Source: Bispira polyomma
Lineage: Eukaryota
Reading direction: 5' to 3'
DNA length: 64,000 bases
Assembly: GCA_965649765.1 (NCBI GenBank)
Contig: OZ287753.1
Coordinates: forward strand, 62,682,001-62,746,000
Shown: piece by piece, positions 17,473 through 64,000 of the stretch
Layout: every line of letters begins with the position of its first letter
Numbering within the stretch: the first letter of the stretch is position 1
Made by a program: the position numbers and the translations under genes
The notes under the pieces: generated by a model
What the model saw: the letters and a program-made list of their open reading frames with translations, nothing else
The model's database searches: none
What the model was told of the DNA's origin: nothing

Positions 17473-17637
17473 GCCAAGATATTTCTGAACAAGAGTTGGC
17501 CGCTCAGTTGGCTGGGACTGAGACGATTGTGCGGGAGACGACTAGTACCACAGTAGAGAGTACCCCTGAGGTGGTACTACATGAGCCAGAGGTACCAGAG
17601 CGTAGTACCCCAGAGGAAACCAGGCCACAAGAAGATG
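17473..17637 (+). CDS. 165-nt exon (QDISEQELAAQLAG...EETRPQED), phase 1/1
   Basis: TTTTTTAG acceptor, G|GTGAGC donor, within ORF 17448-17672. Confidence 0.8.
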
Positions 17638-33674: not shown

Positions 33675-36600
33675 GTGTAGATGCCGATGTAGCTGTTCAT
33701 ATTTATACAGATAGAATTGAAGGGGAACCAGAAACTGAAATTCAAGAATTGGAGGAAATTTTACCAGATGGCACAGTTGTTAAAAGACGTATAATTAGGA
33801 AGAAACAAAGTGAAACAATAGTAAAGCGTGTTGTAACAGAGTCATATGATGAAGAAGGTCAAAGTCTTCCTGAAAGCACAGAGATTTGTGGTGTTACTCT
33901 TGAGGAAGAGCCAGAAACAGATGTACAAGAATTTGATGAAGTATTGCCTGATGGTACTATTGTCAAGAGAAAAATTATCAAAACAAGAAGAACTGTTGTC
34001 AAGAAAATAATTTCAGAAGGTGAGGAAGTTATTCTTTCAGGTGCTGATGAATCCATAATGGCTGATGAAAAGGCACCCGTAGTGATGTTACCTGAGATTA
34101 GAGAAGGGGAAGTTGAAACCAGATCAGACACACAAGTAACTGAAGAAACAACAGATAATGGAACATACATCAAAAAGACCATTGTAACCACAATTCATTT
34201 CAAGCCAGTTGAAACCATTAGTGTACATGATGGAGTAAAAAAGGTAGAACAGACAGAAAAGCCAGTTGGCACAGAAATCAATGAGAATATTCTCCAGTTA
34301 GGGCCGGGAGTCGAAAGTCCAGATGCTGATAATGTCGACAAGAAAACTTCAGTGAAAGAAAGAGAGGATACTACTAATGAAGGAACGTGGGTAAAACATA
34401 AGATCACAACAGTTACAATAACATCCTTGAGAGTCACTGAGGCACCAGTATCAGAGCAGCTGAAACCATCAGAGCAGTTACGTGATGTAGTTGAAGATAT
34501 CATAGCTGGAGAATGTATGATGGTTGATGAAAGTGCTCCAGTAATGATGCCACCTGAGGTCAGAGAAGGGGATGTTGACACCAGATCGGACACACAAGTA
34601 ACTGAAGAAACAAAGGATGATGGAACATACATCCAAAGGACCATTGTAACCACAAGTCATTTTAAGCCAGTTGAAATCATTAGTGTACATGATGGAGTAG
34701 AAAAGGTGGAACAGACAGAAAAGCCAGTTGGCACAGAAATCAATGAGAATATTCTCCAGTTGGGGCCGGGAGTCGAAAGTCCAGATGCTGATAATGTTGA
34801 AAAGAAAACCTCAGTTAAAGAACAACAGGAAAGTACTAGTGAAGGAACTTGGATAAAGCATAAGATCACAACAGTTACAGTAACATCTTTAAGAGTCACT
34901 GATGCACCAATAGAAGAACAGCTCAAATCATCAGACCAGTCAACTGATGTAGAAGATATCATGGCTAGAGAATCTATGATGGTTGATGAAAGTGCTCCAG
35001 TAATGATGCCACCTGAGGTCAGAGAAGGGGATATTGACATCAGATCAGACACACAAGTAACTGAAGATACAAAGGATGATGGAACATACATCAAAAGGAC
35101 CATTGTGACCACAAGTCATTTCAAGCCAGTTGAAACCATTAGTGTACATGATGGAGTAGAAAAGGTGGAACAGACAGAAAAGCCAGTTGGCACAGAAATC
35201 AATGAGAATATTCTCCAGTTAGGGCCGGGAGTCGAAAGTCCAGATGCTGATAATGTTGAAAAGAAAACTTCAGTGAAAGAAAGAGAGGAAAGTACTAGTG
35301 AAGGAACTTGGGTAAGGCATAAGATCACAACAGTTACCGTAACATCTTTAAGAGTCACTGATGCACCAGTAGAAGAACAGCTCAAACCATCAGACCAGTC
35401 AACTGATGTAGAAGATATCATGGCTAGAGAATCTATGATGGTTGATGAAAGTGCTCCAGTAATGATGCCACCTGAGGTCAGAGAAGGGGATATTGACACC
35501 AGATCAGACACACAAGTAACTGAAGATACAAAGGATGATGGAACATACATCAAAAGGACCATTGTGACCACAAGTCATTTCAAGCCAGTTGAAACCATTA
35601 GTGTACATGATGGAGTAGAAAAGGTGGAACAGACAGAAAAGCCAGTTGGCACAGAAATCAATGAGAATATTCTCCAGTTGGGGCCAGGAGTCGAAAGTCC
35701 GGATGCTGATAATGTTGAAAAGAAAACTTCAGTGAAAGAAAGAGAGGAAAGTACTAGTGAAGGAACTTGGGTAAAGCACAAGATCACAACAGTTACAGTA
35801 ACATCTTTAAGAGTCGCTGATGCACCAATAGAAGAACAGCTGAAAGAAGGGGATGTTGAAACCAGATCAGATACACAAGTAACTGAGGAAACAAAGGATG
35901 ATGGAACTTACATCCAAAGGACCATTGCAACCACAAGTTATTTCAAGCCAGTTGAAACCATTAGTGTACATGATGGAGTAGAAAAGGTGGAACAGACAGA
36001 AAAGCCAGTTGGCACAGAAATCAATGAGAATATTCTCCAGTTAGGGCCGGGAGTCGAAAGTCCAGATGCTGATAATGTTGAAAAGAAAACTTCAGTGAAA
36101 GAAAGACAGGAAAGTACTAGTGAAGGAACTTGGGTAAGGCATAAGATCACAACAGTTACCGTAACATCTTTAAGAGTCACTGATGCACCAGTAGAAGAAC
36201 AGCTCAAACCATCAGACCAGTCAACTGATGTAGAAGATATCATGGCTAGAGAATCTATGATGGTTGATGAAAGTGCTCCAGTAATGATGCCACCTGAGGT
36301 CAGAGAAGGGGATATTGACACCAGATCAGACACACAAGTAACTGAAGATACAAAGGATGATGGAACATACATCAAAAGGACCATTGTGACCACAAGTCAT
36401 TTCAAGCCAGTTGAAACCATTAGTGTACATGATGGAGTAGAAAAGGTGGAACAGACAGAAAAGCCAGTTGGCACAGAAATCAATGAGAATATTCTCCAGT
36501 TGGGGCCAGGAGTCGAAAGTCCGGATGCTGATAATGTTGAAAAGAAAACTTCAGTGAAAGAAAGAGAGGAAAGTACTAGTGAAGGAACTTGGGTAAAGCA

Positions 36601-39600
36601 CAAGATCACAACAGTTACAGTAACATCTTTAAGAGTCGCTGATGCACCAATAGAAGAACAGCTGAAAGAAGGGGATGTTGAAACCAGATCAGATACACAA
36701 GTAACTGAGGAAACAAAGGATGATGGAACTTACATCCAAAGGACCATTGCAACCACAAGTTATTTCAAGCCAGTTGAAACCATTAGTGTACATGATGGAG
36801 TAGAAAAGGTGGAACAGACAGAAAAGCCAGTTGGCACAGAAATCAATGAGAATATTCTCCAGTTAGGGCCGGGAGTCGAAAGTCCAGATGCTGATAATGT
36901 TGAAAAGAAAACTTCAGTGAAAGAAAGGGAGGAAAGTACCAGTGAAGGAACTTGGGTAAGGCATAAGATCACAACAGTTACAGTAACATCTTTAAGAGTC
37001 ACTGATGCACCAATAGAAGAACAGCTCAAACCATCAGACCAGTCAACTGATATAGAAGATATCATGGCTAGAGAATCTATGATGGTTGATGAAAGTGCTC
37101 CAGTAATGATGCCACCTGAGGTCAGAGAAGGGGATGTTGACACCAGATCAGACACACAAGTAACTGAAGATACAAAGGATGATGGAACATACATCAAAAG
37201 GACCATTGTGACCACAAGTTATTTCAAGCCAGTTGAAACCATTAGTGTACATGATGGAGTAGAAAAGGTGGAACAGACAGAAAAGCCAGTTGGCACAGAA
37301 ATCAATGAGAATATTCTCCAGTTGGGGCCGGGAGTCGAAAGTCCAGATGCTGATAATGTTGAAAAGAAAACTTCAGTGAAAGAAAGAGAGGAAAGTACCA
37401 GTGAAGGAACTTGGGTAAGGCATAAGATCACAACAGTTACAGTAACATCTTTAAGAGTCACTGATGCACCAATAGAAGAACAGCTCAAACCATCAGACCA
37501 GTCAACTGATGTAGAAGATATCATAGCTAGAGAATCTATGATGGTTGATGAAAGTGCTCCAGTAATGATGCCACCTGTGGTCAGAGAAGGGGATGTTGAC
37601 ACCAGATCAGACACACAAGTAACTGAAGATACAAAGGATGATGGAACATACATCAAAAGGACCATTGTGACCACAAGTCATTTCAAGCCAGTCAAATCCA
37701 TTAGTGTACATGATGGAGTAGAAAAGGTGGAACAGACAGAAAAGCCAGTTGGCACAGAAATCAATGAGAATATTCTCCAGTTAGGGCCGGGAGTCGAAAG
37801 TCCAGATGCTGATAATGTTGAAAAGAAAACTTCAGTGAAAGAAAGAGAGGAAAGTACTAATGAAGGAACTTGGGTAAAGCACAAGTTCACAACAGTTACA
37901 GTAACATCTTTAAGAGTCGGTGATGCACCAATAGAAGAACAGCTCATAGAAGGGGATGTTGAAACCAGATCAGATACACAAGTAACTGAGGAAACAAAGG
38001 ATGATGGAACATACATCCAAAGGACCATTGTGACCACAAGTTGTTTCAAGCCAGTTGAAACCATTAGTGTACATGATGGAGTAGAAAAAGTGGAACAGAC
38101 AGAAAAGCCAGTTGGCACAGAAATCAATGAGAATATTCTCCAGTTGGGGCCGGGAGTCGAAAGTCCGGATGCTGATAATGTTGAGAAGAAAATTTCAGTG
38201 AAAGAAAGAGAGGAAAGTACCAGTGAAGGAACTTGGGTAAAGCATAAGATCACAACAGTTACAGTTACATCTTTAAGAGTCACTGATGCACCAATAGAAG
38301 AACAGCTCAAACCATCAGACCAGTCAACTGATGTAGAAGATATCATGGCTAGAGAATCTATGGTGGTTGATGAAAGTGCTCCAGTAATGATGCCACCTGA
38401 GGTCAGAGAAGGGGATGTTGACACCAGATCAGACACACAAGTAACTGAAGATACAAAGGATGATGGAACATACATCAAAAGGACCATTGTGACCACAAGT
38501 CATTTCAAGCCAGTTGAAACCATTACTGTACATGATGGAGTAGAAAAGGTGGAACAGACAGAAAAGCCAGTTGGCACAGAAATCAATGAGAATATTCTCC
38601 AGTTGGGGCCGGGAGTCGAAAGTCCAGATGCTGATAATGTTGAAAAGAAAACTTCAGTGAAAGAAAGAGAGGAAAGTACCAGTGAAGGAACTTGGGTAAG
38701 GCATAAGATCACAACAGTTACAGTAACATCTTTAAGAGTCACTGATGCACCAATAGAAGAACAGCTCAAACCATCAGACCAGTCAACTGATGTAGAAGAT
38801 ATCATAGCTAGAGAATCTATGATGGTTGATGAAAGTGCTCCAGTAATGATGCCACCTGTGGTCAGAGAAGGGGATGTTGACACCAGATCAGACACACAAG
38901 TAACTGAAGATGCAAAGGATGATGGAACATACATCAAAAGGACCATTGTGACCACAAGTCATTTCAAGCCAGTTGAAACCATTACTGTACATGATGGAGT
39001 AGAAAAGGTGGAACAGACAGAAAAGCCAGTTGGCACAGAAATCAATGAGAATATTCTCCAGTTGGGGCCGGGAGTCGAAAGTCCAGATGCTGATAATGTT
39101 GAAAAGAAAACTTCAGTGAAAGAAAGAGAGGAAAGTACCAGTGAAGGAACTTGGGTAAGGCATAAGATCACAACAGTTACAGTAACATCTTTAAGAGTCA
39201 CTGATGCACCAATAGAAGAACAGCTCAAACCATCAGACCAGTCAACTGATGTAGAAGATATCATAGCTAGAGAATCTATGATGGTTGATGAAAGTGCTCC
39301 AGTAATGATGCCACCTGAGGTCAGAGAAGGGGATGTTGACACCAGATCAGACACACAAGTAACTGAAGATACAAAGGATGATGGAACATACATCAAAAGG
39401 ACCATTGTGACCACAAGTCATTTCAAGCCAGTCAAATCCATTAGTGTACATGATGGAGTAGAAAAGGTGGAACAGACAGAAAAGCCAGTTGGCACAGAAA
39501 TCAATGAGAATATTCTCCAGTTAGGGCCGGGAGTCGAAAGTCCAGATGCTGATAATGTTGAAAAGAAAACTTCAGTGAAAGAAAGAGAGGAAAGTACTAA

Positions 39601-42575
39601 TGAAGGAACTTGGGTAAAGCACAAGATCACAACAGTTACAGTAACATCTTTAAGAGTCGCTGATGCACCAATAGAAGAACAGCTCATAGAAGGGGATGTT
39701 GAAACCAGATCAGATACACAAGTAACTGAGGAAACAAAGGATGATGGAACATACATCCAAAGGACCGTTGTGACCACAAGTTGTTTCAAGCCAGTTGAAA
39801 CCATTAGTGTACATGATGGAGTAGAAAAGGTGGAACAGACAGAAAAGCCAGTTGGCACAGAAATCAATGAGAATATTCTCCAGTTGGGGCCGGGAGTCGA
39901 AAGTCCGGATGCTGATAATGTTGAGAAGAAAATTTCAGTGAAAGAAAGAGAGGAAAGTACCAGTGAAGGAACTTGGGTAAAGCATAAGATCACAACAGTT
40001 ACAGTTACATCTTTAAGAGTCACTGATGCACCAATAGAAGAACAGCTCAAACCATCAGACCAGTCAACTGATGTAGAAGATATCATGGCTAGAGAATCTA
40101 TGGTGGTTGATGAAAGTGCTCCAGTAATGATGCCACCTGAGGTCAGAGAAGGGGATGTTGACACCAGATCAGACACACAAGTAACTGAAGATACAAAGGA
40201 TGATGGAACATACATCAAAAGGACCATTGTGACCACAAGTCATTTCAAGCCAGTTGAAACCATTACTGTACATGATGGAGTAGAAAAGGTGGAACAGACA
40301 GAAAAGCCAGTTGGCACAGAAATCAATGAGAATATTCTCCAGTTGGGGCCGGGAGTCGAAAGTCCAGATGCTGATAATGTTGAAAAGAAAACTTCAGTGA
40401 AAGAAAGAGAGGAAAGTACCAGTGAAGGAACTTGGGTAAGGCATAAGATCACAACAGTTACAGTAACATCTTTAAGAGTCACTGATGCACCAATAGAAGA
40501 ACAGCTCAAACCATCAGACCAGTCAACTGATGTAGAAGATATCATAGCTAGAGAATCTATGATGGTTGATGAAAGTGCTCCAGTAATGATGCCACCTGTG
40601 GTCAGAGAAGGGGATGTTGACACCAGATCAGACACACAAGTAACTGAAGATACAAAGGATGATGGAACATACATCAAAAGGACCATTGTGACCACAAGTC
40701 ATTTCAAGCCAGTCAAATCCATTAGTGTACATGATGGAGTAGAAAAGGTGGAACAGACAGAAAAGCCAGTTGGCACAGAAATCAATGAGAATATTCTCCA
40801 GTTAGGGCCGGGAGTTAAAAGTCCAGATGCTGAAAATGTTGAAAAGAGAACTTCAGTGAAAGAAAGAGAGGAAACTTCTGATGATGGTTCTTGGATGAAA
40901 CACAAAACAACCATTGTAACTTGTAGAGTAATTTCATCATTGAGTGAGCAACATAGTGAAATTGCAGTTCAGCAACTGGTTGAAACAGATATTGAAATAA
41001 ATACAGAACTTACAGAGTTCCAAGAAACTCTGGAGGATGGTACTGTAATCTATCATAAGACTATTAAAAAGACACATTCCAAAAGAATCCAAGAAGCTGA
41101 AAATGTTGATGGATTTGAAAAAGTTGATTTTGATAAAACACTATTAGGAACTGAAATTTCTGAAGAAATCTTACAGTTAGCTCCAGGTATTTTGCCAGAT
41201 CAAACAGAAAATATTGAAAAGAAAGCATCAACACAGACACAGGAGGAAATCCTGGACAATGGAACATGGTTGAAGAAAACAGTAACAACAGTATGTGTAA
41301 CTAGACAAGCAGAAGTAGAGTGTCCTGATGAATTAAGCAGTCAGAATCGAGGGATTCAATCCTGGTATCAGTTGCAAGATGATAATCGTGAATCAACCCC
41401 AGTTGCATCAGATGGACAATTTGATGAACAGTGTTACCATGAAACAGACTTAGCACGTGATGAAAGAGAACAGACTCCTGTTTTTGAAGAAGCACTGGAA
41501 GAGCAAATTGCAGAAGGTCAGGAACAGCTGCCACATGATATTCATCAGCCATTAACTCTTGACGAGTTAGATACATCACTGGAAGATTTTCAGCCAGATG
41601 AAGAGTTGATATCACCATCATCAGAGTATGAAGAAATAGAGGAAGTTCTGCCTGATGGTACTGTAATAACACGTAAAGTTTTGTCTCAAAGAATTAGAAA
41701 AACTGTAACTCGTAAAATTCGTAGGGTAGGGCCTGATGGTGAGGTAATAGAAGATGTTGTAACAGAAGAAATCCCTGAGACTGATCTTTTATCAGAATCT
41801 TCCAGGGCATCAAGTGTAATGTCTAGTATAAGTGATGCCCGTGAGTTAACATCCCCTATTCCTATGTCTCCTGTAGAATTAGGTACCCCAGTTGAATCAG
41901 AAACAGAACGTTCCTCAGTGAGAGTCTACACTGATACCATTGAAGGCGAACCAGAGATTGAGACAGATGTCCAAGAATTTGAAGAAACCCTTCCAGATGG
42001 CACCGTGGTGAAAAGGAAAGTTATTAAAACCAGACAGAAGCAGACTATTGTCAAAAGAGTGGTGATGGAAGGACCAGAAACAGATTTGCCTACCACTGAG
42101 GAACAAGCTCAAGCAATGCTGAGTCATGACGGAGGGTTCCAACCGGACATGAAGTACAGTGACTATACAGAGGAAGAACCACAAACGGCAACACAGGTTC
42201 AAGAATATGAGGAAACTATGCCTGATGGAAGTGTGGTGAAAAAGAAAATAGTGACTACAACAGAGGAACAAATGAAAACATCTCGCACTGTAATGGAAGC
42301 AAGTAGTCCACCACCAGAATTGATTGAAGGACAGCATATTTCCAGCTCTACAGATGAAGCAGATGACTTTGAAATTGTAAATTACCCAGTTGATGAATCA
42401 ATGGTAAAGCCAGAGTTTCTACCAGCAAAACCATTGAAACAGCCATACATGCCAGAAGGTGAGCAGAGTACAAAGGAAGATGTGCTAGCTGAGACGGATG
42501 ACTACTATGAGGTATCTGCAGAAGATGTTGGGTTGAGAGCAGTAGAGGAGCCTGATGTGGTCCCAAATCTTCAAG
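33675..42575 (+). CDS. Giant exon 2 (8,901 nt, 2,967 codons): 16 module repeats plus unique N- and C-terminal parts
   Basis: TTTTGTAG acceptor, in frame with ORF 33749-42589; AAG|GTAGAA donor; 266-nt intron from exon 1; phase 1/1. Confidence 0.88.
34070..40920 (+). repeat. Coding tandem array of 459-nt and 363-nt units, 16 modules
   Basis: Spacing of equivalent positions: 462,459,459,363,459,363,459,459,363,459,459,459,363,459,459. Confidence 0.95.
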
Positions 42576-45569: not shown

Positions 45570-45605
45570 GTGAAGAAGAACAAACGCCTGGTTTCTACGT
45601 ACAAG
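45570..45605 (+). CDS. 36-nt microexon (GEEEQTPGFYVQ), phase 1/1
   Basis: TTTTGTTGTAG acceptor, AAG|GTAGGA donor, frame-preserving. Confidence 0.65.
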
Positions 45606-46689: not shown

Positions 46690-47020
46690 ATCACAGAAAA
46701 TCATCTTTCCACCTCTGGTTTCTTTGACAAAAAACTTTATTCAAAATCACTTGAAGTTGTAGCACCTGTTGAATGGAATAGTCTCTCTAGTAGTCTTCAC
46801 AATGAGACAAGGATTACAGGCTTCAGGAAAAAGCTCAAAACACATTTGTATCAACTGGTTTTTCCGCCTTAAGTTTCATCTCCTGGTCATGGCTAAACTG
46901 TGATCAAGAACCTTTACCCCTAACGGACTATTCTTTTGCTTAGTGATTGAGATGTGTGCCACAGAAAATACCTGACCATCGATTGTGGTGCTATAGAAGT
47001 AAAAAACATTAACATTAATT
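46690..47020 (+). mobile_element. 5'-truncated LINE (CR1/L2 group) 3' end
   Basis: ORF end SLEVVAPVEWNSLSSSLH...FRKKLKTHLY resembles the C-terminal WNSLP...FKxxLKTxLF signature of CR1/L2-group ORF2, followed by a short 3' UTR and (AACATT)2 tail. Confidence 0.65.
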
Positions 47021-47509: not shown

Positions 47510-47626
47510 TTGTGGAGAATGGGGTTGATGCTCAAGTTACCATAACAATAACAGAAGACAATAGTTCTCCAGTTGATGATGATGATTTTGTTAAATACTA
47601 TGGTCTTGAGGAACATGTTGAAAAAG
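47510..47626 (+). CDS. 117-nt exon (VVENGVDAQVTITITEDNSSPVDDDDFVKYYGLEEHVEK), phase 1/1
   Basis: AAG acceptor after a T-rich tract, AAG|GTACGG donor, within ORF 47395-47721. Confidence 0.65.
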
Positions 47627-49446: not shown

Positions 49447-49497
49447 CCTTTCCACAGAAAGAACAGATACAACAAGAGGACACTGAAATAGAAGAAG
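49447..49497 (+). CDS. 51-nt exon (FPQKEQIQQEDTEIEE), phase 1/1
   Basis: Strong tract TTTCTTTCTTTTCTTTTAG, AAG|GTACAT donor, acidic frame-preserving peptide. Confidence 0.7.
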
Positions 49498-52302
49498 GTA
49501 CATATAAAGTATAACACATTTGTGAAAATGGAATGTTTTTTTTTGAGAATGCAGCCTGTTTTCACACATTTTCCACCAGTTGATTTATCCTTCTGTGTGT
49601 GTGTTACTGTTTTGTTAAGGTCGAAAAAAATGTAGCAAAAATTGCCACTGGAAATATATAAGCGAAGATGCCTGGCACTGTATATAGCATACAGTATTAT
49701 TGTTGGTATGAGTAGTTTAATCCAATTTATGTCAAAGGTGAAGATATTACATTCACAGCATATATTTCTGGGTAGTTTTTGCAGCAACCTTTGTGTTGGT
49801 ATCGTCAAGAATACATCAAAAGTTTCTGAGATAAAAACGCACAGTTGAAGTCATGTCAGTATTTATTTTCATTTTAGGATTCAAAATTTGGAGCAAACTG
49901 CAGATTGGAATGTAGAAATCTGTAAGCAAGCGTGAAGTGTTCTATGTTTGCAGGGTTACATATAGTGCTGAGAAACAATTTATGTGTCCCGATGTATGAA
50001 ATATGTGGCACTTGTGACTGTTTTGACTACAGCAGAATACTAAATTGCTTAAGTTAGCCCCACAGATATTGGTCACTTTCACTAACGCAGGTTTTTACTT
50101 GCAAAGCAATTTGGCAGGAGAGTATTTTCATGTAGTCAAATGGCACAAGTACCCTGTAATGTCCCGTGATTTGTCGCAAGATGAGGAGCTTTTATTACAA
50201 CTGATTTTGTAGGGTAGTCCAAATTGCATGCTCAAATTACAGTATAAAAATTTTCTTTTTGATGATTTTTAGGTGTCATAATAAATAATCGTATTACAAA
50301 AGCCAATTGTCTAGAGTCCTATTATATCTGACGTAAACTGAATCTATCCAAATACTATGGTTTGATAGAAAGTTGTTTTTGCATTGCCAAGACATGCTTT
50401 GTAGTTTTTTTAAGTGAATGTTATTTCTAAATAATATAATTCAAAATATGTTATTTCGAAGCATTTTTTTAAGGTAGTTATTCTATTTTCGTACTTTTCA
50501 GGCTACATAAACAAATGCAAACTCAGATTGTAATAGCTCCTTGTCACTGTGAAATGTTTATTAAATTATGTTGAAGCCAGTGTGTCAATTGATATAAATA
50601 ACACTGTTAACAGGTTGCACTGTGTACTTAAAATTGTTAAATGTTGAGGTTTAACTTAGCTAATTTGACTGAAAATATCTTGTCTAAATTTTACATTTTT
50701 GCTCCAACTATTTTACAATATTGCTGTATTTCTAAAATTTTAACAAATTAGACATTGATGTCTGCATAAATAACAAAAAATCATATTATTTGATATACAG
50801 ATGGCATGGGTAGGCATAATAAGTTTGCCAGAAAACTAGGCTAAGTTGATCCCTCAACAAAGTGTTTGTGAAATGCCATCTGTGCTTATGGCCAGTATTC
50901 TGCTTAATGGTCTTTCGGGAGAAATTTATCTTTAGGCCATGTCACCAATTCATTTTAGTTGAGATCTTACATATGCCAAATAAATTATCTTCTTTTTAAA
51001 GACTATAAATACCAGGGCTATGTCAGAAACATAAGCAGAACACACCTATATTGATATATTTTTCCAACAAAATGTTTAAATCTTTAGGCCAGTGGTTTTT
51101 TTTTTGTTTTTTTTTTGTCCTGCTAATAAATACTACTTAGTGGCTACGTACTTTTGTTGTAAAAGCAGAATTATGGCCCTACCCGCAATCATTCTTGCTA
51201 GTTGGTTGCAGCCAGCCTGATATTTCTGATATTTGATAGAAAAGCTATTCGTTATAATTGTGAACTATCCAAAAACAGACAAAATTGTGCTTTATCAATG
51301 TTTTACTAAACTTGAAAGTTTGGTTAAATGACTAAATTGACTTAACAGAAAGGCTGATTGTTAAATTTGGTGATAGTGCAGTTGATTTTAGAATGGCATG
51401 TGTACCAATATTACAGAATTGCAATCAAGATAAATTTTTAAAAACACAAAAACATCAGCCGTCAAGTTTTATATTTTGTTTGAGAGGCTAAAATCATACA
51501 CTAGTTTGATATAGTTACAATATATTGTACAGTTCTAATACAATTTCTTTTCACCTGTAGAAAGTGCAGTTGCAATATGCTATAAAACTTGTGATTGGTA
51601 CCTTGCAGCGTTAGCAAAAACTACATGCATGAGTGTTCAACCACAATAATGGTTTTATCCTACTGTTATATGTTATATATATAACACTATACATTTCATT
51701 TTTCCTGCAGTGCCTTGAAAGCTTAACTATCATAATGTGCATCTTCTGAGGTATAGCTTTACTCTGTACAGTAAGTTTTTATATGTTGTGCCACTATATA
51801 GAGTAAACAACAAAGGATCAATATTTATGCTTAATGTTTAAATGGGGGAAATTAATATTTAACATAACCTTTTGCTGCAACACACCAAACATACAGTAGA
51901 TTATAGGTAAAGTCAGATGTGGCGGTTTGTGTAATAACCGTTAGAACACGCTAGTTTAAACTATTATTTTTCAATAAATTTCTACTTTAGTTTTCATAAG
52001 TTTCTTCAGTTGACTACTTTCAAGAAGTTAGAGCAAACGAGTAAACTTAATCATACATCTTATATCTTCCAACCCACCTCTCTCCTTTTCATTAGTTGCT
52101 TTATGCTTGAATTTGCTTGCTTTTAATATTTGAAATCTACCAAATCAATATTTAGTTGCTCTTTAATTATTAAATCTAACACTTTGTTTTGTTTTTGTTC
52201 TCTTTCATGCCTGCCCATCCACTTGGATCATAAAAATGGGATGGTATGAACATTTCATATACAATATCCATTTGAAAACCCCCCTGTCATATTTTTTTTA
52301 AG

Positions 52303-55300
52303 ATAAGGGAATTCTTGAAGAACCCCATGCCCCTGTTTCCTCTGTTGTTGTGATGTTTGAAGATAAGGCTAAGCTTATAGACCAGGATATATCGCATTTA
52401 ATGTCTCTGAAAGAGAAACAGAAGGTTGTAAGTGAAAGTAGAAACAAACAAACTCGACATGATCAGAATCTTGAGGAACTGAATCAAACTGATAAGATAC
52501 TACAAGAAATGATGGAAAGTAGTCCTGATGAAAGTATTGTAATTGAAACTCAAAAAGATGTCAAAACAATAGTAAGTATGTTTGAAGACAGTGACTTAGA
52601 TCGACCGTTGGAAAAATTTACACCAATTTTACACATGCAAAAAAACACAGAAGAAGAAACAGTTGTAGATAGTGAAAACATCATTCAGGCAGAAATTACT
52701 ACAGAATTTGAAATGAATAGAGTACAGACAATACAACAGATAGAGCCAAAGAGAGGAATTCAAGATGGACGATCAACCACAATAGACAGTCAATCAAAGG
52801 CAAAGGAATTATTGGTAGTGGATATTGATACTTTTGGAGCAGTTTCTGAAGCAACAACAGAAACCGTTATCCCTGATAAGGAATCAGTTGAAGTGGAAGG
52901 TGAACAAACTACTGTTGTCATAAAAGATGATACAGAAGAGGAAGTGAAAACTGTTACTGACATTGAAGGCAAGGAAGAGTTGATAGAAGAAACTGTTGAG
53001 GAAGCTGTGAGTGAACCAGTTCTAGAACAGCACGTTACTGAAGATGAAGCTGAAGTAATGCCAGCTGTTATTGAAGACCTGCCTCTGACAGAAGATATGG
53101 AAAAAGAAACTGTTGAAAAAATGGATGATACAGAGAAGGAAGAGACCATAATTGCAGACATTGAAACTAAAGATGAGTCTACACCAGTTACTTTTGAGGA
53201 AGCTGCAAGTGAGCCATTGGATGAAATAGTTTTAGAAAAGCATGTTGGTGATGACGAAGTAGAAATGGAGCCTGCAGTTATTCCTGACATGCCTGTATCA
53301 CTAGATGTAGATAGAGAAGCATTTGAGGAAGTATCTGAGCCGTCTGGAGATGCAGAGCCAGAGGAAGATACAAAACTTAAAGTAGACATCGAACTGCAAG
53401 ATATCAGTGAAGAACATATTGACAAAGAAACTCTTATTGAAACTGAACCAGATACAGAAGCAAAGGAAAGTGTAGAGACTGGTATTGCCTCAGAAGAATT
53501 TGAAGATGTAGCCATTGCCGAAAGTGTGGTAACTGAAGCAATAATAATGGCTACTGAAACAGTGGATGAATTTGCTGTAGAAGAATCAAGTAAAGACATA
53601 GAATCTATTGAGGAAGTATCAGATAAAACACAGGAGGAAAAAGATATTGATACTATAGAAGCAGTTTCTGAAGCAACAGCAGAAACCGTTATCCCTGATA
53701 AGAAATCAGTTGAAGTGGAAGGTGAACAAACTACTGTTGTCATAAAAGATGATACAGAAGAAGAAGTGAAAACAGTTACTGACATTGAAGGCAAGGAAGA
53801 GGTAATAGAAGAAACTGTTGAGGAAGCTGTGAGTGAACCAGTTCTAGAACGGCACGTTACTGGAGATGAAGCTGAAATAATGCCAGCTGTTATTGAAGAC
53901 CTGCCTCTGACAGAAGATGTGGAAAAAGAAACTGTTGAAAAAATGGATGATACAGAGAAGGAAGAGACCATAATTGCAGACATTGAAACTAAAGATGAGT
54001 CTACACCAGTTACTTTTGAGGAAGCTGCAAGTGAGCCATTGGATGAAATAGTTTTAGAAAAGCATGTTGGTGACGACGAAGTAGAAATGGAGCCTGCAGT
54101 TATTCCTGACATGCCTGTATCACTAGATGCAGATAGAGAAGCATTTGAGGAAGTAGCTGAGCTGTCTGGAGATGCAGAGCCAGAGGAAGATACAAAACTT
54201 AAAGTAGACATCGAACTGCAAGATGATATCAGTGAAGAACATATTGACACAGAAACTCTTGTTGAAGCTGAACCGGATACAGAAGCAAAGGAAAGTGTAG
54301 AGACTGGTATTGCCTCAGAAGAATTTGAAGATGCAGCCATTGCCGAAAGTGTGGTAACTGAAGCAATAATAATGGCTACTGAAACAGTTAATGAATTTGC
54401 TGTAGAAGAATCAAGTAAAGACATAGAATCTATTGAGGAAGTATCAGATAAAACACAGGAGGAGAAAGATATTGATACTATAGAAGCAGTTTCTGAAGCA
54501 ACAGCAGAAACCGTTATCCCTGATAAGAAATCAGTTGAAGTGGAAGGTGAACAAACTACTGTTGTCGTGGAAGATGATACAGAAGAGGAAGTGAAAACTG
54601 TTACTGACATTGAAGGCAAGGAAGAGTTGATAGAAGAAACTGTTGAGGAAACTGTGAGTGAACCAGTTCTAGAACAGCACGTTACTGAAGATGGAGCTGA
54701 AATAATGCCAGCTGCTATTGAAGAATTGCCTCTGACAGAAGACGTGGAAAAAGAAACTGTTGAAAAAATGGATGATACAGAGAAGGAAGAAACCAAAATT
54801 GCAGACATTGAAACTAAAGATGAGTCTACACCAGTTACTTTTGAAGAAGCTGCAAGTGAGCCATTGGATGAAATAGTTTTAAAAGAGCATGTTGGTGACG
54901 ACCAAGTACAAATTGAGTCTGCAGTTATTCCTCACATGCCTGTATCACTAGATGTAGATAGAGAAACATTTGAGGAAGTAGCTGAGCCGTCTGGAGATGC
55001 AGAGCCAGAGGAAGATACAAAACTTAAATTAGACATCGAACTGCAAGATGATATCAGTGAAGAACATATTGACACAGAAACTCTTGTTGAAGCTGAACCG
55101 GATACAGAAGCAAAGGAAAGTATAGAGACTGGTATTGCCTCAGAAGAATTTAAAGGTGCAGCCATTGGCGAAAGTTTGGTAACTGAAGCAATAATAATGG
55201 CCACTGAAGTAGTGGATGAATTTGCTGTACAAGAATCAAGTAAAGACATAGAATCTATTGAGGAAGTATCAGAGAAAGCACAGGAGAAAGATATTGATAC

Positions 55301-58300
55301 TATAGAAGCAGTTTCTGAAGCAACAACAGAAACCGTTATGCCTGATAAGGAATCAGTTGAAGTGGAAGGTGAACAAACTACTGTTGTCGTGGAAGATGAT
55401 ACAGAAGAGGAAGTGAAAACTGTTACTGACACTGAAGGGAAGGATGAGTTGGTAGAAGAAACTGTTGAGGAAGCTGTTAGTGAACCAGTTCTAGAACAGC
55501 ACGTTACTGAAGATGAAGCTGAAATAAGGCCAGCTGGTATTGAAGACTTGCCTCCAACAGAAGATGTGGAAAAAGAAACTGTTGAAAAAATGGATGATAC
55601 AGAGAAGGAAGAGACCATAATTGCAGACATTGAAACTAAAGATGAGTCTACACCAGTTACTTTTGAGGAAGCTGCAAGTGAGCCATTGGATGAAATAGTT
55701 TTAGAAAAGCATGTTGGTGATGACGAAGTAGAAATGGAGCCTGCAGTTATTCCTGACATGCCTGTATCACTAGATGTAGATAGAGAAGCATTTGAGGAAG
55801 TATCTGAGCCGTCTGGAGATACAGAGCCAGAGGAAGATACAAAACTTAAAGTAGACATCGAACTGCAAGATATCAGTGAAAAACATATTGACAAAGAAAC
55901 TCTTATTGAAACTGAACCAGATACAGAAGCAAAGGAAAGTGTAGAGACTGGTATTGCCTCAGAAGAATTTGAAGATGTAGCCATTGCCGAAAGTGTGGTA
56001 ACTGAAGCAATAATAATGGCTACTGAAACAGTGGATGAATTTGCTGTAGAAGAATCAAGTAAAGACATAGAATCTATTGAGGAAGTATCAGATAAAACAC
56101 AGGAGGAAAAAGATATTGATACTATAGAAGCAGTTTCTGAAGCAACAGCAGAAACCGTTATCCCTGATAAGAAATCAGTTGAAGTGGAAGGTGAACAAAC
56201 TACTGTTGTCATAAAAGATGATACAGAAGAAGAAGTGAAAACAGTTACTGACATTGAAGGCAAGGAAGAGGTAATAGAAGAAACTGTTGAGGAAGCTGTG
56301 AGTGAACCAGTTCTAGAACTGCACGTTACTGGAGATGAAGCTGAAATAATGCCAGCTGTTATTGAAGACCTGCCTCTGACAGAAGATGTGGAAAAAGAAA
56401 CTGTTGAAAAAATGGATGATACAGAGAAGGAAGAGACCATAATTGCAGACATTGAAACTAAAGATGAGTCTACACCAGTTACTTTTGAGGAAGCTGCAAG
56501 TGAGCCATTGGATGAAATAGTTTTAGAAAAGCATGTTGGTGACGACGAAGTAGAAATGGAGCCTGCAGTTATTCCTGACATGCCTGTATCACTAGATGCA
56601 GATAGAGAAGCATTTGAGGAAGTAGCTGAGCTGTCTGGAGATGCAGAGCCAGAGGAAGATACAAAACTTAAAGTAGACATCGAACTGCAAGATGATATCA
56701 GTGAAGAACATATTGACACAGAAACTCTTGTTGAAGCTGAACCGGATACAGAAGCAAAGGAAAGTGTAGAGACTGGTATTGCCTCAGAAGAATTTGAAGA
56801 TGCAGCCATTGCCGAAAGTGTGGTAACTGAAGCAATAATAATGGCTACTGAAACAGTTAATGAATTTGCTGTAGAAGAATCAAGTAAAGACATAGAATCT
56901 ATTGAGGAAGTATCAGATAAAACACAGGAGGAGAAAGATATTGATACTATAGAAGCAGTTTCTGAAGCAACAGCAGAAACCGTTATCCCTGATAAGAAAT
57001 CAGTTGAAGTGGAAGGTGAACAAACTACTGTTGTCGTGGAAGATGATACAGAAGAGGAAGTGAAAACTGTTACTGACATTGAAGGCAAGGAAGAGTTGAT
57101 AGAAGAAACGGTTGAGGAAACTGTGAGTGAACCAGTTCTAGAACAGCACGTTACTGAAGATGGAGCTGAAATAATGCCAGCTGCTATTGAAGAATTGCCT
57201 CTGACAGAAGACGTGGAAAAAGAAACTGTTGAAAATATGGATGATACAGAGAAGGAAGAAACCAAAATTGCAGACATTGAAACTAAAGATGAGTCTACAC
57301 CAGTTACTTTTGAAGAAGCTGCAAGTGAGCCATTGGATGAAATAGTTTTAGAAGAGCATGTTGGTGACGACCAAGTACAAATTGAGTCTGCAGTTATTCC
57401 TCACATGCCTGTATCACTAGATGTAGATAGAGAAACATTTGAGGAAGTAGCTGAGCCGTCTGGAGATGCAGAGCCAGAGGAAGATACAAAACTTAAATTA
57501 GACATCGAACTGCAAGATGATATCAGTGAAGAACATATTGACACAGAAACTCTTGTTGAAGCTGAACCGGATACAGAAGCAAAGGAAAGTGTAGAGACTG
57601 GTATTGCCTCAGAAGAATTTGAAGATGCAGCCATTGCCGAAAGTGTGGTAACTGAAGCAATAATAATGGCTACTGAAACAGTGGATGAATTTGCTGTAGA
57701 AGAATCAAGTAAAGACATGGAATCTTTAGAGAAAGTATCAGAGAAAACACAGGAGGAGAAAGATATTGATACTATAGAAGCAGTTTCTGAAGTAACAGCA
57801 GAAACCGTTATCCCTGATAAGAAATCAGTTGAAGTGGAAGGTGAACAAACTACTGTTGTCGTGGAAGATGATACAGAGGAGGAAGTGAAAACTGTTATTG
57901 ACATTGAAGGCAAGGAAGAGTTGATAGAAGAAACTGTTGAGGAAGCTGTGAGTGAACCAGTTCTAGAACAGCATGTTACTGAAGATGGAGCTGAAATAAT
58001 GCCAGCTGTTATTGAAGAATTGCCTCTGACAGAAGACGTGGAAAAAGAAACTGTTGAAAAAATATATGATACAGAGAAGGAAGAAACCAAAATTGCAGAC
58101 ATTGAAACTAAAGATGAGTCTACACCAGTTACTTTTGAGGAAGCTGCAAGTGAGCCATTGGATGAAATAGTTTTAGAAGAGCATGTTGGTGACGACGAAG
58201 TACAAATTGAGTCTGCAGTTATTCCTCACATGCCTGTATCACTAGATGTAGATAGAGAAACATTTGAGGAAGTAGCTGAGCCGTCTGGAGATGCAGAGCC

Positions 58301-61300
58301 GGAGGAAAATACAAAACTTAAATTAGACATCGAACTGCAAGATGATATCAGTGAAGAACATATTGACACAGAAACTCTTGTTGAAACTGAACCGGATACA
58401 GAAGCAAAGGAAAGTATAGAGACTGGTATTGCCTCAGAAGAATTTAAAGGTGCAGCCATTGGCGAAAGTTTGGTAACTGAAGCAATAATAATGGCCACTG
58501 AAGTAGTGGATGAATTTGCTGTACAAGAATCAAGTAAAGACATAGAATCTATTGAGGAAGTATCAGAGAAAGCACAGGAGAAAGATATTGATACTATAGA
58601 AGCAGTTTCTGAAGCAACAACAGAAACCGTTATGCCTGATAAGGAATCAGTTGAAGTGGAAGGTGAACAAACTACTGTTGTCGTGGAAGATGATACAGAA
58701 GAGGAAGTGAAAACTGTTACTGACACTGAAGGGAAGGATGAGTTGGTAGAAGAAACTGTTGAGGAAGCTGTTAGTGAACCAGTTCTAGAACAGCACGTTA
58801 CTGAAGATGAAGCTGAAATAAGGCCAGCTGGTATTGAAGACTTGCCTCCAACAGAAGATGTGGAAAAAGAAACTGTTGAAAAAATGGATGATACAGAGAA
58901 GGAAGAGACCATAATTGCAGACATTGAAACTAAAGATGAGTCTACACCAGTTACTTTTGAGGAAGCTGCAAGTGAGCCATTGGATGAAATAGTTTTAGAA
59001 AAGCATGTTGGTGATGACGAAGTAGAAATGGAGCCTGCAGTTATTCCTGACATGCCTGTATCACTAGATGTAGATAGAGAAGCATTTGAGGAAGTATCTG
59101 AGCCGTCTGGAGATGCAGAGCCAGAGGAAGATACAAAACTTAAAGTAGACATCGAACTGCAAGATATCAGTGAAGAACATATTGACAAAGAAACTCTTAT
59201 TGAAACTGAACCAGATACAGAAGCAAAGGAAAGTGTAGAGACTGGTATTGCCTCAGAAGAATTTGAAGATGTAGCCATTGCCGAAAGTGTGGTAACTGAA
59301 GCAATAATAATGGCTACTGAAACAGTGGATGAATTTGCTGTAGAAGAATCAAGTAAAGACATAGAATCTATTGAGGAAGTATCAGATAAAACACAGGAGG
59401 AAAAAGATATTGATACTATAGAAGCAGTTTCTGAAGCAACAGCAGAAACCGTTATCCCTGATAAGAAATCAGTTGAAGTGGAAGGTGAACAAACTACTGT
59501 TGTCATAAAAGATGATACAGAAGAAGAAGTGAAAACAGTTACTGACATTGAAGGCAAGGAAGAGGTAATAGAAGAAACTGTTGAGGAAGCTGTGAGTGAA
59601 CCAGTTCTAGAACTGCACGTTACTGGAGATGAAGCTGAAATAATGCCAGCTGTTATTGAAGACCTGCCTCTGACAGAAGATGTGGAAAAAGAAACTGTTG
59701 AAAAAATGGATGATACAGAGAAGGAAGAGACCATAATTGCAGACATTGAAACTAAAGATGAGTCTACACCAGTTACTTTTGAGGAAGCTGCAAGTGAGCC
59801 ATTGGATGAAATAGTTTTAGAAAAGCATGTTGGTGACGACGAAGTAGAAATGGAGCCTGCAGTTATTCCTGACATGCCTGTATCACTAGATGCAGATAGA
59901 GAAGCATTTGAGGAAGTAGCTGAGCTGTCTGGAGATGCAGAGCCAGAGGAAGATACAAAACTTAAAGTAGACATCGAACTGCAAGATGATATCAGTGAAG
60001 AACATATTGACACAGAAACTCTTGTTGAAGCTGAACCGGATACAGAAGCAAAGGAAAGTGTAGAGACTGGTATTGCCTCAGAAGAATTTGAAGATGCAGC
60101 CATTGCCGAAAGTGTGGTAACTGAAGCAATAATAATGGCTACTGAAACAGTTAATGAATTTGCTGTAGAAGAATCAAGTAAAGACATAGAATCTATTGAG
60201 GAAGTATCAGATAAAACACAGGAGGAGAAAGATATTGATACTATAGAAGCAGTTTCTGAAGCAACAGCAGAAACCGTTATCCCTGATAAGAAATCAGTTG
60301 AAGTGGAAGGTGAACAAACTACTGTTGTCGTGGAAGATGATACAGAAGAGGAAGTGAAAACTGTTACTGACATTGAAGGCAAGGAAGAGTTGATAGAAGA
60401 AACTGTTGAGGAAACTGTGAGTGAACCAGTTCTAGAACAGCACGTTACTGAAGATGGAGCTGAAATAATGCCAGCTGCTATTGAAGAATTGCCTCTGACA
60501 GAAGACGTGGAAAAAGAAACTGTTGAAAAAATGGATGATACAGAGAAGGAAGAAACCAAAATTGCAGACATTGAAACTAAAGATGAGTCTACACCAGTTA
60601 CTTTTGAGGAAGCTGCAAGTGAGCCATTGGATGAAATAGTTTTAGAAGAGCATGTTGGTGACGACGAAGTACAAATTGAGTCTGCAGTTATTCCTCACAT
60701 GCCTGTATCACTAGATGTAGATAGAGAAACATTTGAGGAAGTAGCTGAGCCGTCTGGAGATGCAGAGCCGGAGGAAAATACAAAACTTAAATTAGACATC
60801 GAACTGCAAGATGATATCAGTGAAGAACATATTGACACAGAAACTCTTGTTGAAACTGAACCGGATACAGAAGCAAAGGAAAGTATAGAGACTGGTATTG
60901 CCTCAGAAGAATTTAAAGGTGCAGCCATTGGCGAAAGTTTGGTAACTGAAGCAATAATAATGGCCACTGAAGTAGTGGATGAATTTGCTGTACAAGAATC
61001 AAGTAAAGACATAGAATCTATTGAGGAAGTATCAGAGAAAGCACAGGAGAAAGATATTGATACTATAGAAGCAGTTTCTGAAGCAACAACAGAAACCGTT
61101 ATGCCTGATAAGGAATCAGTTGAAGTGGAAGGTGAACAAACTACTGTTGTCGTGGAAGATGATACAGAAGAGGAAGTGAAAACTGTTACTGACACTGAAG
61201 GGAAGGATGAGTTGGTAGAAGAAACTGTTGAGGAAGCTGTTAGTGAACCAGTTCTAGAACAGCACGTTACTGAAGATGAAGCTGAAATAAGGCCAGCTGG

Positions 61301-64000
61301 TATTGAAGACTTGCCTCCAACAGAAGATGTGGAAAAAGAAACTGTTGAAAAAATGGATGATACAGAGAAGGAAGAGACCATAATTGCAGACATTGAAACT
61401 AAAGATGAGTCTACACCAGTTACTTTTGAGGAAGCTGCAAGTGAGCCATTGGATGAAATAGTTTTAGAAAAGCATGTTGGTGATGACGAAGTAGAAATGG
61501 AGCCTGCAGTTATTCCTGACATGCCTGTATCACTAGATGTAGATAGAGAAGCATTTGAGGAAGTATCTGAGCCGTCTGGAGATGCAGAGCCAGAGGAAGA
61601 TACAAAACTTAAAGTAGACATCGAACTGCAAGATATCAGTGAAGAACATATTGACAAAGAAACTCTTATTGAAACTGAACCAGATACAGAAGCAAAGGAA
61701 AGTGTAGAGACTGGTATTACCTCAGAAGAATTTGAAGATGTAGCCATTGCCGAAAGTGTGGTAACTGAAGCAATAATAATGGCTACTGAAACAGTGGATG
61801 AATTTGCTGTAGAAGAATCAAGTAAAGACATAGAATCTATTGAGGAAGTATCAGATAAAACACAGGAGGAAAAAGATATTGATACTATAGAAGCAGTTTC
61901 TGAAGCAACAGCAGAAACCGTTATCCCTGATAAGAAATCAGTTGAAGTGGAAGGTGAACAAACTACTGTTGTCATAAAAGATGATACAGAAGAAGAAGTG
62001 AAAACAGTTACTGACATTGAAGGCAAGGAAGAGGTAATAGAAGAAACTGTTGAGGAAGCTGTGAGTGAACCAGTTCTAGAACTGCACGTTACTGGAGATG
62101 AAGCTGAAATAATGCCAGCTGTTATTGAAGACCTGCCTCTGACAGAAGATGTGGAAAAAGAAACTGTTGAAAAAATGGATGATACAGAGAAGGAAGAGAC
62201 CATAATTGCAGACATTGAAACTAAAGATGAGTCTACACCAGTTACTTTTGAGGAAGCTGCAAGTGAGCCATTGGATGAAATAGTTTTAGAAAAGCATGTT
62301 GGTGACGACGAAGTAGAAATGGAGCCTGCAGTTATTCCTGACATGCCTGTATCACTAGATGCAGATAGAGAAGCATTTGAGGAAGTAGCTGAGCTGTCTG
62401 GAGATGCAGAGCCAGAGGAAGATACAAAACTTAAAGTAGACATCGAACTGCAAGATGATATCAGTGAAGAACATATTGACACAGAAACTCTTGTTGAAGC
62501 TGAACCGGATACAGAAGCAAAGGAAAGTGTAGAGACTGGTATTGCCTCAGAAGAATTTGAAGATGCAGCCATTGCCGAAAGTGTGGTAACTGAAGCAATA
62601 ATAGTGGCTACTGAAACAGTTAATGAATTTGCTGTAGAAGAATCAAGTAAAGACATAGAATCTATTGAGGAAGTATCAGATAAAACACAGGAGGAGAAAG
62701 ATATTGATACTATAGAAGCAGTTTCTGAAGCAACAGCAGAAACCGTTATCCCTGATAAGAAATCAGTTGAAGTGGAAGGTGAACAAACTACTGTTGTCGT
62801 GGAAGATGATACAGAAGAGGAAGTGAAAACTGTTACTGACATTGAAGGCAAGGAAGAGTTGATAGAAGAAACTGTTGAGGAAACTGTGAGTGAACCAGTT
62901 CTAGAACAGCACGTTACTGAAGATGGAGCTGAAATAATGCCAGCTGCTATTGAAGAATTGCCTCTGACAGAAGACATGGAAAAAGAAACTGTTGAAAAAA
63001 TGGATGATACAGAGAAGGAAGAAACCAAAATTGCAGACATTGAAACTAAAGATGAGTCTACACCAGTTACTTTTGAGGAAGCTGCAAGTGAGCCATTGGA
63101 TGAAATAGTTTTAGAAGAGCATGTTGGTGACGACGAAGTACAAATTGAGTCTGCAGTTATTCCTCACATGCCTGTATCACTAGATGTAGATAGAGAAACA
63201 TTTGAGGAAGTAGCTGAGCCGTCTGGAGATGCAGAGCCGGAGGAAAATACAAAACTTAAATTAGACATCGAACTGCAAGATGATATCAGTGAAGAACATA
63301 TTGACACAGAAACTCTTGTTGAAACTGAACCGGATACAGAAGCAAAGGAAAGTATAGAGACTGGTATTGCCTCAGAAGAATTTAAAGGTGCAGCCATTGG
63401 CGAAAGTTTGGTAACTGAAGCAATAATAATGGCCACTGAAGTAGTGGATGAATTTGCTGTACAAGAATCAAGTAAAGACATAGAATCTATTGAGGAAGTA
63501 TCAGAGAAAGCACAGGAGAAAGATATTGATACTATAGAAGCAGTTTCTGAAGCAACAACAGAAACCGTTATGCCTGATAAGGAATCAGTTGAAGTGGAAG
63601 GTGAACAAACTACTGTTGTCGTGGAAGATGATACAGAAGAGGAAGTGAAAACTGTTACTGACACTGAAGGGAAGGATGAGTTGGTAGAAGAAACTGTTGA
63701 GGAAGCTGTTAGTGAACCAGTTCTAGAACAGCACGTTACTGAAGATGAAGCTGAAATAATGCCAGCTGGTATTGAAGACTTGCCTCCAACAGAAGATGTG
63801 GAAAAAGAAACTGTTGAAAAAATGGATGATACAGAGAAGGAAGAGACCATAATTGCAGACATTGAAACTAAAGATGAGTCTACACCAGTTACTTTTGAGG
63901 AAGCTGCAAGTGAGCCATTGGATGAAATAGTTTTAGAAAAGCATGTTGGTGATGACGAAGTAGAAATGGAGCCTGCAGTTATTCCTGACATGCCTGTATC
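52303..64000 (+). CDS. Giant exon 3 (>=11,698 nt, runs off window): DKGILEEPHAP... then 274/275-aa E/D/T/V-rich repeats
   Basis: TTTTTTTTAAG acceptor, phase 1; manual translation open through the unique 5' part into the repeats; all repeat indels are 3 nt; absent from the ORF track, consistent with no stop inside the window. Confidence 0.88.
52821..64000 (+). repeat. Coding tandem array, 822/825-nt units x 13 plus a partial unit, 2,469-nt higher-order repeat
   Basis: GATATTGATACT at 52821, 53643, 54468, 55290, 56112, 56937, 57762, 58584, 59406, 60231, 61053, 61875, 62700, 63522. Confidence 0.95.

Follow-up and report, generated by a model that had tools for sequence, protein, structure and literature searches.

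A predicted 31-kb acidic repeat exon in an ankyrin gene of the annelid Bispira polyomma

Giant ankyrins with long, repeat-bearing exons are already known across bilaterians, and as a class they are not new. In the survey by Jegla 2016 (PMC5135030), long exons occurred in every bilaterian group examined, with a mean length of 8,103 bp and a maximum of 27,804 bp; a gene contained two of them at most, the tabled repeats measured 12 to 76 amino acids (aa), and no homology between long exons was detected across phyla. A long exon there exceeded 3 kb and lay 3' of UPA, in protostomes also 3' of the death domain, with a composition biased to about 25% Ser + Glu and >55% Ser/Glu/Thr/Asp/Lys/Pro. The Drosophila Ank2-XL exon has 27,804 bp and 93 repeats of 76 aa (PMC5135030); Ank2-XL is a postulated molecular spacer that acts in microtubule organization with Futsch (PMC5135030, PMC6703079), and a fraction of its array suffices for axon diameter (PMC5135030). 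Caenorhabditis elegans UNC-44 AO13 contains a 14,974-bp exon with STEP repeats, the distal end of which docks the UNC-119/UNC-33 microtubule-anchoring complex (PMC7159925). Searching the literature for a giant ankyrin exon in annelids returned nothing relevant. Here, we describe a third long exon (hereafter E3) predicted in an ankyrin gene of Bispira polyomma. It begins within a 64,000-nucleotide (nt) stretch of contig OZ287753.1 (assembly GCA_965649765.1, 1.035 Gb; C6:62682001-62746000; hereafter the window). Coordinates are those of the window, extended to values above 64,000 downstream and to negative values upstream, and 200 kb were examined on either side. We assign a probability of about 0.6 to the reading that E3 would be a cassette exon, open to skipping, that supplies an actin anchor, a polyanionic coil and a docking site at its far end, with spacing set by array length. 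The parts of E3 are as follows.

52283..52302, plus strand: acceptor of E3, a pyrimidine tract followed by AG
52303..64000, plus strand: part of long exon 3 (E3) inside the window; the entire predicted exon is 52303-83541 (C6:62734303-62765541)
52335..52361, plus strand: first VxxLxxxFE-type match, predicted binding, E3 aa 12-20
52560..52586, plus strand: second VxxLxxxFE-type match, predicted binding, E3 aa 87-95
52839..64000, plus strand: part of the tandem array inside the window, about 13.5 units
81771-82440, plus strand: three-hairpin module, E3 aa 9,820-10,040
82824-83441, plus strand: conserved tail motifs, in the last 250 aa
83542-83559, plus strand: Quaking-type element over the E3 donor, GT-ACTAAC-N6-TAAC

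Like the Ank2-XL exon, E3 is a giant repeat exon past the death domain of a canonical ankyrin, and it carries an array of repeats of conserved length (33 units). It differs in its size of 31,239 bp and its units of 273 to 275 aa, compared with 76 aa for the largest unit in Table S4 of the survey. It is also far more acidic than the Lys/Pro/Ser-rich XL consensus, a comparison made with the consensus description and not by alignment, and it is modeled as an internal phase 1-1 cassette that is one of four long exons, not of two as tabled there. With UNC-44 AO13, E3 shares a giant region that follows the death domain and is acidic and rich in repeats; UNC-44 has a single long exon with 27- and 60-aa repeats, and no UNC-119 site was identified in E3. 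The analogy to Ank2-XL, drawn in an earlier note on this DNA made from the sequence alone, was judged apt, and E3 may work in a like manner.

The host gene is a canonical ankyrin (ANK, ZU5, UPA, Death). Upstream exons between -91378 and about -8100 encode, in order, ankyrin repeats, ZU5, ZU5, UPA and a death domain, and 8 of 10 core exon frames scored above the Pfam cut-off. Ankyrin-repeat motifs were found in 13 exon frames 58 to 91 kb upstream of the window (3/3 scanned frames above the cut-off); the domain of canonical ankyrins has 24 repeats. By eye, the repeat-domain exons are closer to earthworm ankyrins than to those of Aplysia or Lottia, in keeping with an annelid. ZU5 matches had E values of 2e-22 and 6e-5, with the second ZU5, as a partial exon, below the cut-off at E 0.001; UPA_2 matches had 6e-22 and 4e-26, and the death domain (PF00531) 1.7e-10 at L041:928-1341, approximately 9 kb upstream of the window. 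The whole genome contains one UPA_2 locus. All four long exons, of 12,768, 8,901, 31,239 and 7,374 bp, lie 3' of the death domain, and 13/13 modeled exons past this domain are phase 1-1. The modeled exons sum to 20,778 aa; with a core estimated at 1,600 aa, an isoform of about 22,000 aa would be possible.

The earlier note had claimed a third giant exon, opening at a phase-1 acceptor and apparently staying open to the window end. The plus frame from 52302 indeed contains no in-frame stop in the 3,899 codons up to the window end, and, translated further, it continues for another 19.5 kb to 83555 (10,418 codons stop to stop). The acceptor (TTTTTTTTAAG/AT at 52303) is phase 1, as is the donor (AAG/GTACTA after 83541); the exon that they delimit is predicted to be 31,239 bp, or 3 x 10,413 codons, with a product of approximately 1.15 MDa. 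The junction 49497->52303 with the preceding microexon m3 is phase-compatible. Base shuffling left no stop-free sequence in 2,000 trials for each of the 179-codon front, one repeat unit and the 983-codon unique back. The E3 frame had been missing from the list of open reading frames, most likely by a window-edge effect, because it has no stop inside the window. The Ser-rich minus-strand frames seen there are present (274 to 822 aa), and one antisense frame of the unit consensus has 0 stops. An antisense gene over E3 was rejected, as the minus frames are interrupted every 1 to 3 units; these frames are shadows of the plus coding, as had been suspected.

The composition described as rich in Glu, Asp, Thr, Val and Ala was confirmed (Glu 24, Val 11, Asp 10, Thr 10, Ile 8 and Ala 7%). 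Ser + Glu amount to 29.9% and Ser/Glu/Thr/Asp/Lys/Pro to 59.4%, within the bias of giant ankyrins; expression aside, E3 thus agrees with the surveyed long exons in position, size and composition. The PGV and GTW core reported missing is so (0 and 0 in E3, versus 27/26 in exon 1 and 16/16 in exon 2). Pfam gave matches solely at E >0.1 on the first 1,000 aa and none at E 0.01 on the unique back. The open segment is almost certainly a coding exon of a giant ankyrin and likely a single one.

The array extends from 52839 to approximately 80700 and consists of 33 full units of 819 to 825 bp and a decayed 34th, together about 9,250 stop-free codons. The 274/275-aa repeat noticed earlier holds inside the window, and units of 273 aa follow further downstream. 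Units are 93.5 to 100% identical in DNA and are ordered ABCABCCABCABCABCABCCACDDEDEDDEFCD, that is, a higher-order ABC repeat of 2,469 bp followed by D and E units; some ABC trimers differ at just 3 to 7 of 2,475 sites. An older duplication of about 65 to 70 aa is visible inside the unit (z 14.3). The other two frames of the unit hold 23 and 40 stops per unit.

Could such an array be untranslated satellite DNA or an over-expanded assembly, with a short exon starting from an internal acceptor near the tail? In-frame acceptor-like sites do exist at 81430, 82687 and 82696, and homologous exons of about 0.75 kb are found. We examined three contig runs of one study, which have even intron coverage and behave as DNA; they may derive from the assembled animal and are therefore a check on the assembly, not on the species. 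Contigs matched the unique front and back of E3 with 0 differences, and the sole indel in contigs over 74001-84000 (L003) was 3 nt. The ratio of depth to single-copy depth agreed within 30% with assembled 31-mer copies in 9/10 pieces. Assembled copy number was inside the depth range in 5/5 X2 pieces, 11 to 15% below it in 4/4 X3 pieces, and well outside it in 3/3 X1 pieces, the last in favor of an artifact. By contrast, 9,250 codons without a stop beside frames with 23 and 40 stops per unit, indels of 3 nt only, and 5' end motifs conserved in the homologous loci L042 and L053 speak for a translated exon, and we regard the artifact explanation as very improbable.

Among the 33 units, we counted 118 variant alleles (92 non-synonymous, 26 synonymous, 0 stops), where 87.6, 26.8 and 3.6 were expected; the probability of finding no stop is 0.017. 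All three indel events are 3 nt long. The ratio of non-synonymous to synonymous change (pN/pS) is near 1 (0.58-2.53 over 15 pairs), and the E3 repeats show no synonymous excess (P 0.6). Such an excess was found in the exon 1 repeats (P 0.001) and in the 153-aa repeats of exon 2 (P 0.03), with P 0.08 for four 121-aa units. In the E3 array, selection acts on the reading frame, not on the sequence. These data also bear on the view that E3 is real and its ends matter, while the array has grown by unequal crossing-over to a length that is irrelevant, selection removing only stops and frameshifts. A pN/pS near 1, the recent amplification seen in the nearly identical ABC trimers, 29 homologous exons of about 0.75 kb without filler, and the sufficiency of a fraction of the fly XL array for axon diameter (PMC5135030) would all agree with tolerated expansion of this kind. 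Against it, each of L042, L043/P0038, L053 and P0027 has an unrelated acidic filler at this position, matches to an actin-binding motif track the long form (3/3 complete long exons versus 0/29 short ones), and an insert of 1.15 MDa would be costly to make. An indifferent array length seems rather unlikely.

The E3 unit is unrelated to the other repeats of the gene, as had been claimed: in a shuffle test, its similarity to the exon 1 unit (z 1.4) and the exon 2 unit (z -0.9) was negligible in comparison with that between exons 1 and 2 (z 35.8). Relatives of the E3 front and first unit were found in 0 of 7,977 candidates, which by the search's own measure is weak evidence, and in 0/144 proteins and 0/34 loci. 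The proposal of an independent origin therefore stands for the filler, which is new, and fails for the exon as a whole, since its 3' module is 48% identical to that of exon 2 and its tail and position are conserved.

The array has a net charge of -2,630, or -0.28 per residue, a FoldIndex of -0.23 and 1.5% aromatics. AlphaFold gave no secondary structure and a predicted local distance difference test score (pLDDT) of 42.5, a low confidence partly expected from an alignment of 7 near-identical rows. The array is thus predicted to be disordered and strongly acidic; of the disordered polyacidic rod envisaged earlier, the acidity and the predicted disorder are retained and the rod is not, as nothing predicts stiffness. 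Generic scaling laws suggest a radius of gyration of 30 to 45 nm and a contour of 3.5 micrometers. The net charge of -2,630 argues against direct microtubule binding by the repeat. The array is quite probably a sequence-independent spacer. Two kinds of short motif were considered and set aside: an EB1-type SxIP, with TVIP-type matches in 26 places and in acidic context, was rejected as unlikely, and several unit types lack the LIR-like motifs noticed by eye in others.

At the front of E3, two matches resemble a short F-actin-binding motif, VxxLxxxFE, which tolerates certain substitutions and lies in disordered context (PMC13364712). As in the known motif, E3 has Val/Ile at P1, Leu/Ile/Val at P4, Phe at P8 and Glu at P9, and the context is predicted to be disordered. 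The two are the only matches in the approximately 20,400 aa of the long exons, and both fall within the first 95 aa of E3; the background is 8 matches in 131,060 aa. L042 has two matches in its first 200 aa and one more at 817, L053 has one, and the motif occurs in all three complete long exons (E3, L042 and L053) and in none of the 29 short homologues. Human ANK2 1990-1998 (interface predicted template modeling score 0.9) and ANK3 2715-2723 (0.64) are listed as carriers of the motif (PMC13364712, Suppl. Table 3), and the ANK2 site falls inside the AnkB giant insert, which spans about 2,100 aa from near aa 1476 onward. Vertebrate giant AnkB (440 kDa) and AnkG (480 kDa) thus resemble E3 in carrying the motif, as well as in having an alternatively spliced, disordered insert with short linear motifs, as predicted for E3; unlike in E3, their insert precedes the death domain, measures 6.2 to 7.8 kb and has few or no repeats. 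The flanks of the E3 matches are more acidic than that of ITPKA, and binding by E3 is predicted from sequence. We lean, by a little, toward actin binding by these motifs.

The back of E3 contains a three-hairpin module and a tail. Over 234 aa, the module shares 48% identity with that at the 3' end of exon 2 (E 5e-58), it contains the LPDG hairpin of the exon 1/2-type repeat, and within this genome the module occurs solely in this ankyrin gene. AlphaFold predicted three blocks of basic beta-hairpins without a fixed arrangement (pLDDT 62.8, predicted template modeling score (pTM) 0.23). Searches of the PDB by sequence gave one match at E 1.2 and, in another search, none; fold searches with this model of pTM 0.23 (Foldseek best E 0.39, VIA best Z 3.3) returned long hairpins only and were uninformative. 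The duplication of the module between exon 2 and E3 appears old, because identity is just 48% and both types occur in other species. A related case is the Branchiostoma ankyrin with two homologous long exons, where the duplicate is called a recent copy; the E3 and exon 2 modules, by contrast, are merely 48% identical.

Homologue searches yielded 29 proteins for the module, 2 for the tail and 126 in a representative search. The tail, matched by 16/144 proteins, has five blocks (P.I.IQ.ASP..QSP, RPLSP.DY.L, GRI..D.S.QIF.EQS, RPPSP.DY.L and PEDVF.VPEP). P0010, P0027 and P0038 combine module and tail as E3 does, and upstream acidic repeats unrelated to those of E3 are present in P0027 (23 aa) and P0038 (13/290 aa). 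A quick tree built from 25 of the approximately 130 module-bearing sequences placed E3, on a long branch, with the three other modules that bear a tail and with six further ones, separately from the exon 2 module (SH-aLRT 96). A scan of metagenome contigs gave 34 tail loci from 78 pattern-matched stretches, falling into 25 groups at about 90% identity. Exon order around them is kept: m2 lies upstream in 12/34, E3b downstream in 24/34, and exon 4 follows in 18/34, many contigs being too short to show these exons. In 29 loci the homologous exon measures about 0.75 kb, with frames of some 250 to 330 codons, and it reaches 5,593 bp in L053 and 9,905 bp in L042; three more are open-ended at 2.9 to 6.7 kb, L043 having at least 6.7 kb. 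The long homologues contain unrelated acidic fillers with net charges of -0.18 to -0.30 per residue. The conserved motifs at the back of E3 likely dock partners. As a separate observation, P0036, P0039, P0042 and P0090 amplify the LPDG hairpin itself, in arrays with periods of 96, 117, 309 and 243 aa.

The E3 donor overlaps an element whose layout matches the bipartite Quaking consensus (10.1101/2025.09.04.674271). Among the 14 donors of the gene, this one alone has ACTAAY at the site. Of 25 homologous donor groups, 15 have it no more than 25 nt away, against a background of 2.8%; the homologous donors were chosen by rule, and the 25 groups are related to each other. GCATG, which is not at the E3 donor, occurs within 40 nt in 11 of the 25 groups (background 3.8%). 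In five homologous proteins the module leads directly to the terminal exon without the E3 tail, which is consistent with skipping or absence of E3. Read-through at the donor would meet a stop after four codons, and a truncated isoform ending at E3 is possible.

The same element could point to a scaffold of muscle or glia, in which an E3 isoform ties the membrane or sarcoplasmic reticulum to actin. The hairpin module would then correspond to the obscurin-binding sheet of vertebrate small ankyrin 1 (sAnk1), a likeness that we assume; no PDB sequence matched the module below E 1, though the PDB may lack that region of sAnk1. Quaking elements are enriched in heart transcripts, with an excess of QKI motifs where cardiac cassette exons have weak 5' splice sites (10.1101/2025.09.04.674271), and sAnk1 binds obscurin via basic beta-strand residues (PMC11927728), as the predicted basic hairpins of the E3 module might. 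The conserved donor element and the actin-motif matches at the E3 front would suit such a scaffold too. Characterized giant ankyrins are mainly neuronal, and we consider a muscle or glial role quite improbable.

In ankyrins, membrane proteins attach through the ANK repeats and spectrin through ZU5; the protein is therefore expected at the cell cortex. We propose that a neuronal giant isoform would include E3 while others skip it, possibly via a Quaking-type splicing factor. Two VxxLxxxFE-type helices at its front would bind cortical F-actin, and the array of about 9,250 residues would form a swollen polyanionic coil acting by length and charge, not by sequence. The coil would hold the cortex apart from the partners of the distal hairpin module and of the Ser-Pro motifs. 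These partners are probably microtubule-associated proteins, as for fly Ank2-XL with Futsch, and membrane, actin and deeper cytoskeleton would be separated by a distance that array length sets. A role of E3 in neuronal microtubule organization has somewhat better than even odds.

Several observations, in addition to the shallow alignment behind the AlphaFold model, weigh against this proposal. The E3 junctions are predictions from splice-site phase and conservation across species. In the array, substitutions that keep charge show no enrichment (P 0.17), and the changes are not more conservative than expected at random (P 0.27). Amino acids drift neutrally and sizes range over 40-fold, which suits tolerated expansion no less than selection for length. 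The motif pair at the front has a shuffle P of 0.0002 in a scan window picked after the motif had been seen. The motif is short, its first copy has Val at P4 and few basic residues, and the one match in L053 is weak alone (P 0.024). At the back, the module is missing beside the tail in P0030, P0031 and L042, and the best tree does not unite the four tail-bearing modules in a single clade (2 changes; p-AU 0.277, such a clade being neither shown nor rejected). The 29 short loci seem closely related and may be a paralogous ankyrin, and the heart enrichment of Quaking elements fits muscle as well as nerve.

The remaining modeled exons of the gene are as follows.

20641..33408, plus strand: long exon 1, 12,768 bp, 312-aa hairpin repeats
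33675..42575, plus strand: long exon 2, 8,901 bp, 153/121-aa hairpin repeats, 3' module paralogous to that of E3
45570..45605, plus strand: predicted microexon m1, 36 nt, phase 1-1
47510..47626, plus strand: microexon m2, 117 nt, phase 1-1, with a homologue upstream of the E3 homologue in the 12/34 loci given above
49447..49497, plus strand: predicted microexon m3, 51 nt, phase 1-1, directly upstream of E3
84850-85788, plus strand: exon E3b, a small exon downstream of E3
86180-86275, plus strand: small exon downstream of E3b
87916-95289, plus strand: long exon 4, 7,374 bp
within 103869-104710, plus strand: last two exons, at the 3' end of the gene

A single beta-hairpin unit makes up the arrays of both exon 1 (312 = 2 x 156 aa) and exon 2 (153/121 aa); it is under purifying selection and has relatives in about 60 of the 144 proteins. 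No credible Pfam family and no published description of this unit were found, and matches to Microp_apicomplexa and SMP were taken as chance inflated by repeats. By eye, its T..T.HF.P stretch resembles the consensus of C. elegans unc-44 repeat A (Jegla, Table S4), a possible homology across phyla. Long exon 4 is acidic and non-repetitive, with blocks conserved in 18/34 related loci. The terminal exon (104491-104710) encodes one more block that resembles a hairpin; over 53 aa it shares 79% identity with the end of P0020. Between the death domain and exon 1 lie five candidates for small acidic phase 1-1 exons (6579-6872, 9197-9367, 10860-10961, 11997-12077 and 17473-17637). Among intronic sequences, a high-copy interspersed repeat at 46650-47020, with a depth several hundred times single copy, resembles the 3' end of frames like those of long interspersed nuclear elements elsewhere in the region, and a 142-bp tandem repeat family occupies 1-1067; by eye, similar translated text may recur near 128-137 kb. 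Reverse-transcriptase-like retroelement frames lie 52 to 56 kb upstream of the window and at 143243-161792, one of them inside an intron of the ankyrin-repeat region. Genome-wide, we found four intronless divergent actin genes and 131 actin-family matches, many of which are clustered paired fragments.

With respect to the family, and as far as our searches reach, E3 is new in size, as 31.2 kb exceeds every entry in Table S4 of Jegla 2016, a statement that makes no claim on exons in general. The gene is new in number, with four long exons against two at most in that survey. Also new are conserved ends, exon order and splicing element around a filler that varies approximately 40-fold, where the survey saw long-exon homology lost across phyla. 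A further novelty is the candidate F-actin-binding motif, listed for human AnkB and AnkG as well; if its function is true, the long exons of vertebrates and invertebrates, reported to share no detectable homology, would for the first time be linked at the level of a motif. In its boldest form, which we hold to be unlikely, E3 would be a natural molecular ruler with a fixed actin-binding front, a fixed docking tail and acidic filler between them, reinvented and resized about 40-fold (0.75-31 kb) by annelid lineages and tuning the cortex-to-microtubule distance and axon calibre. Annelid species would offer a natural length series for the question of whether the repeat length of giant ankyrins sets axon calibre.

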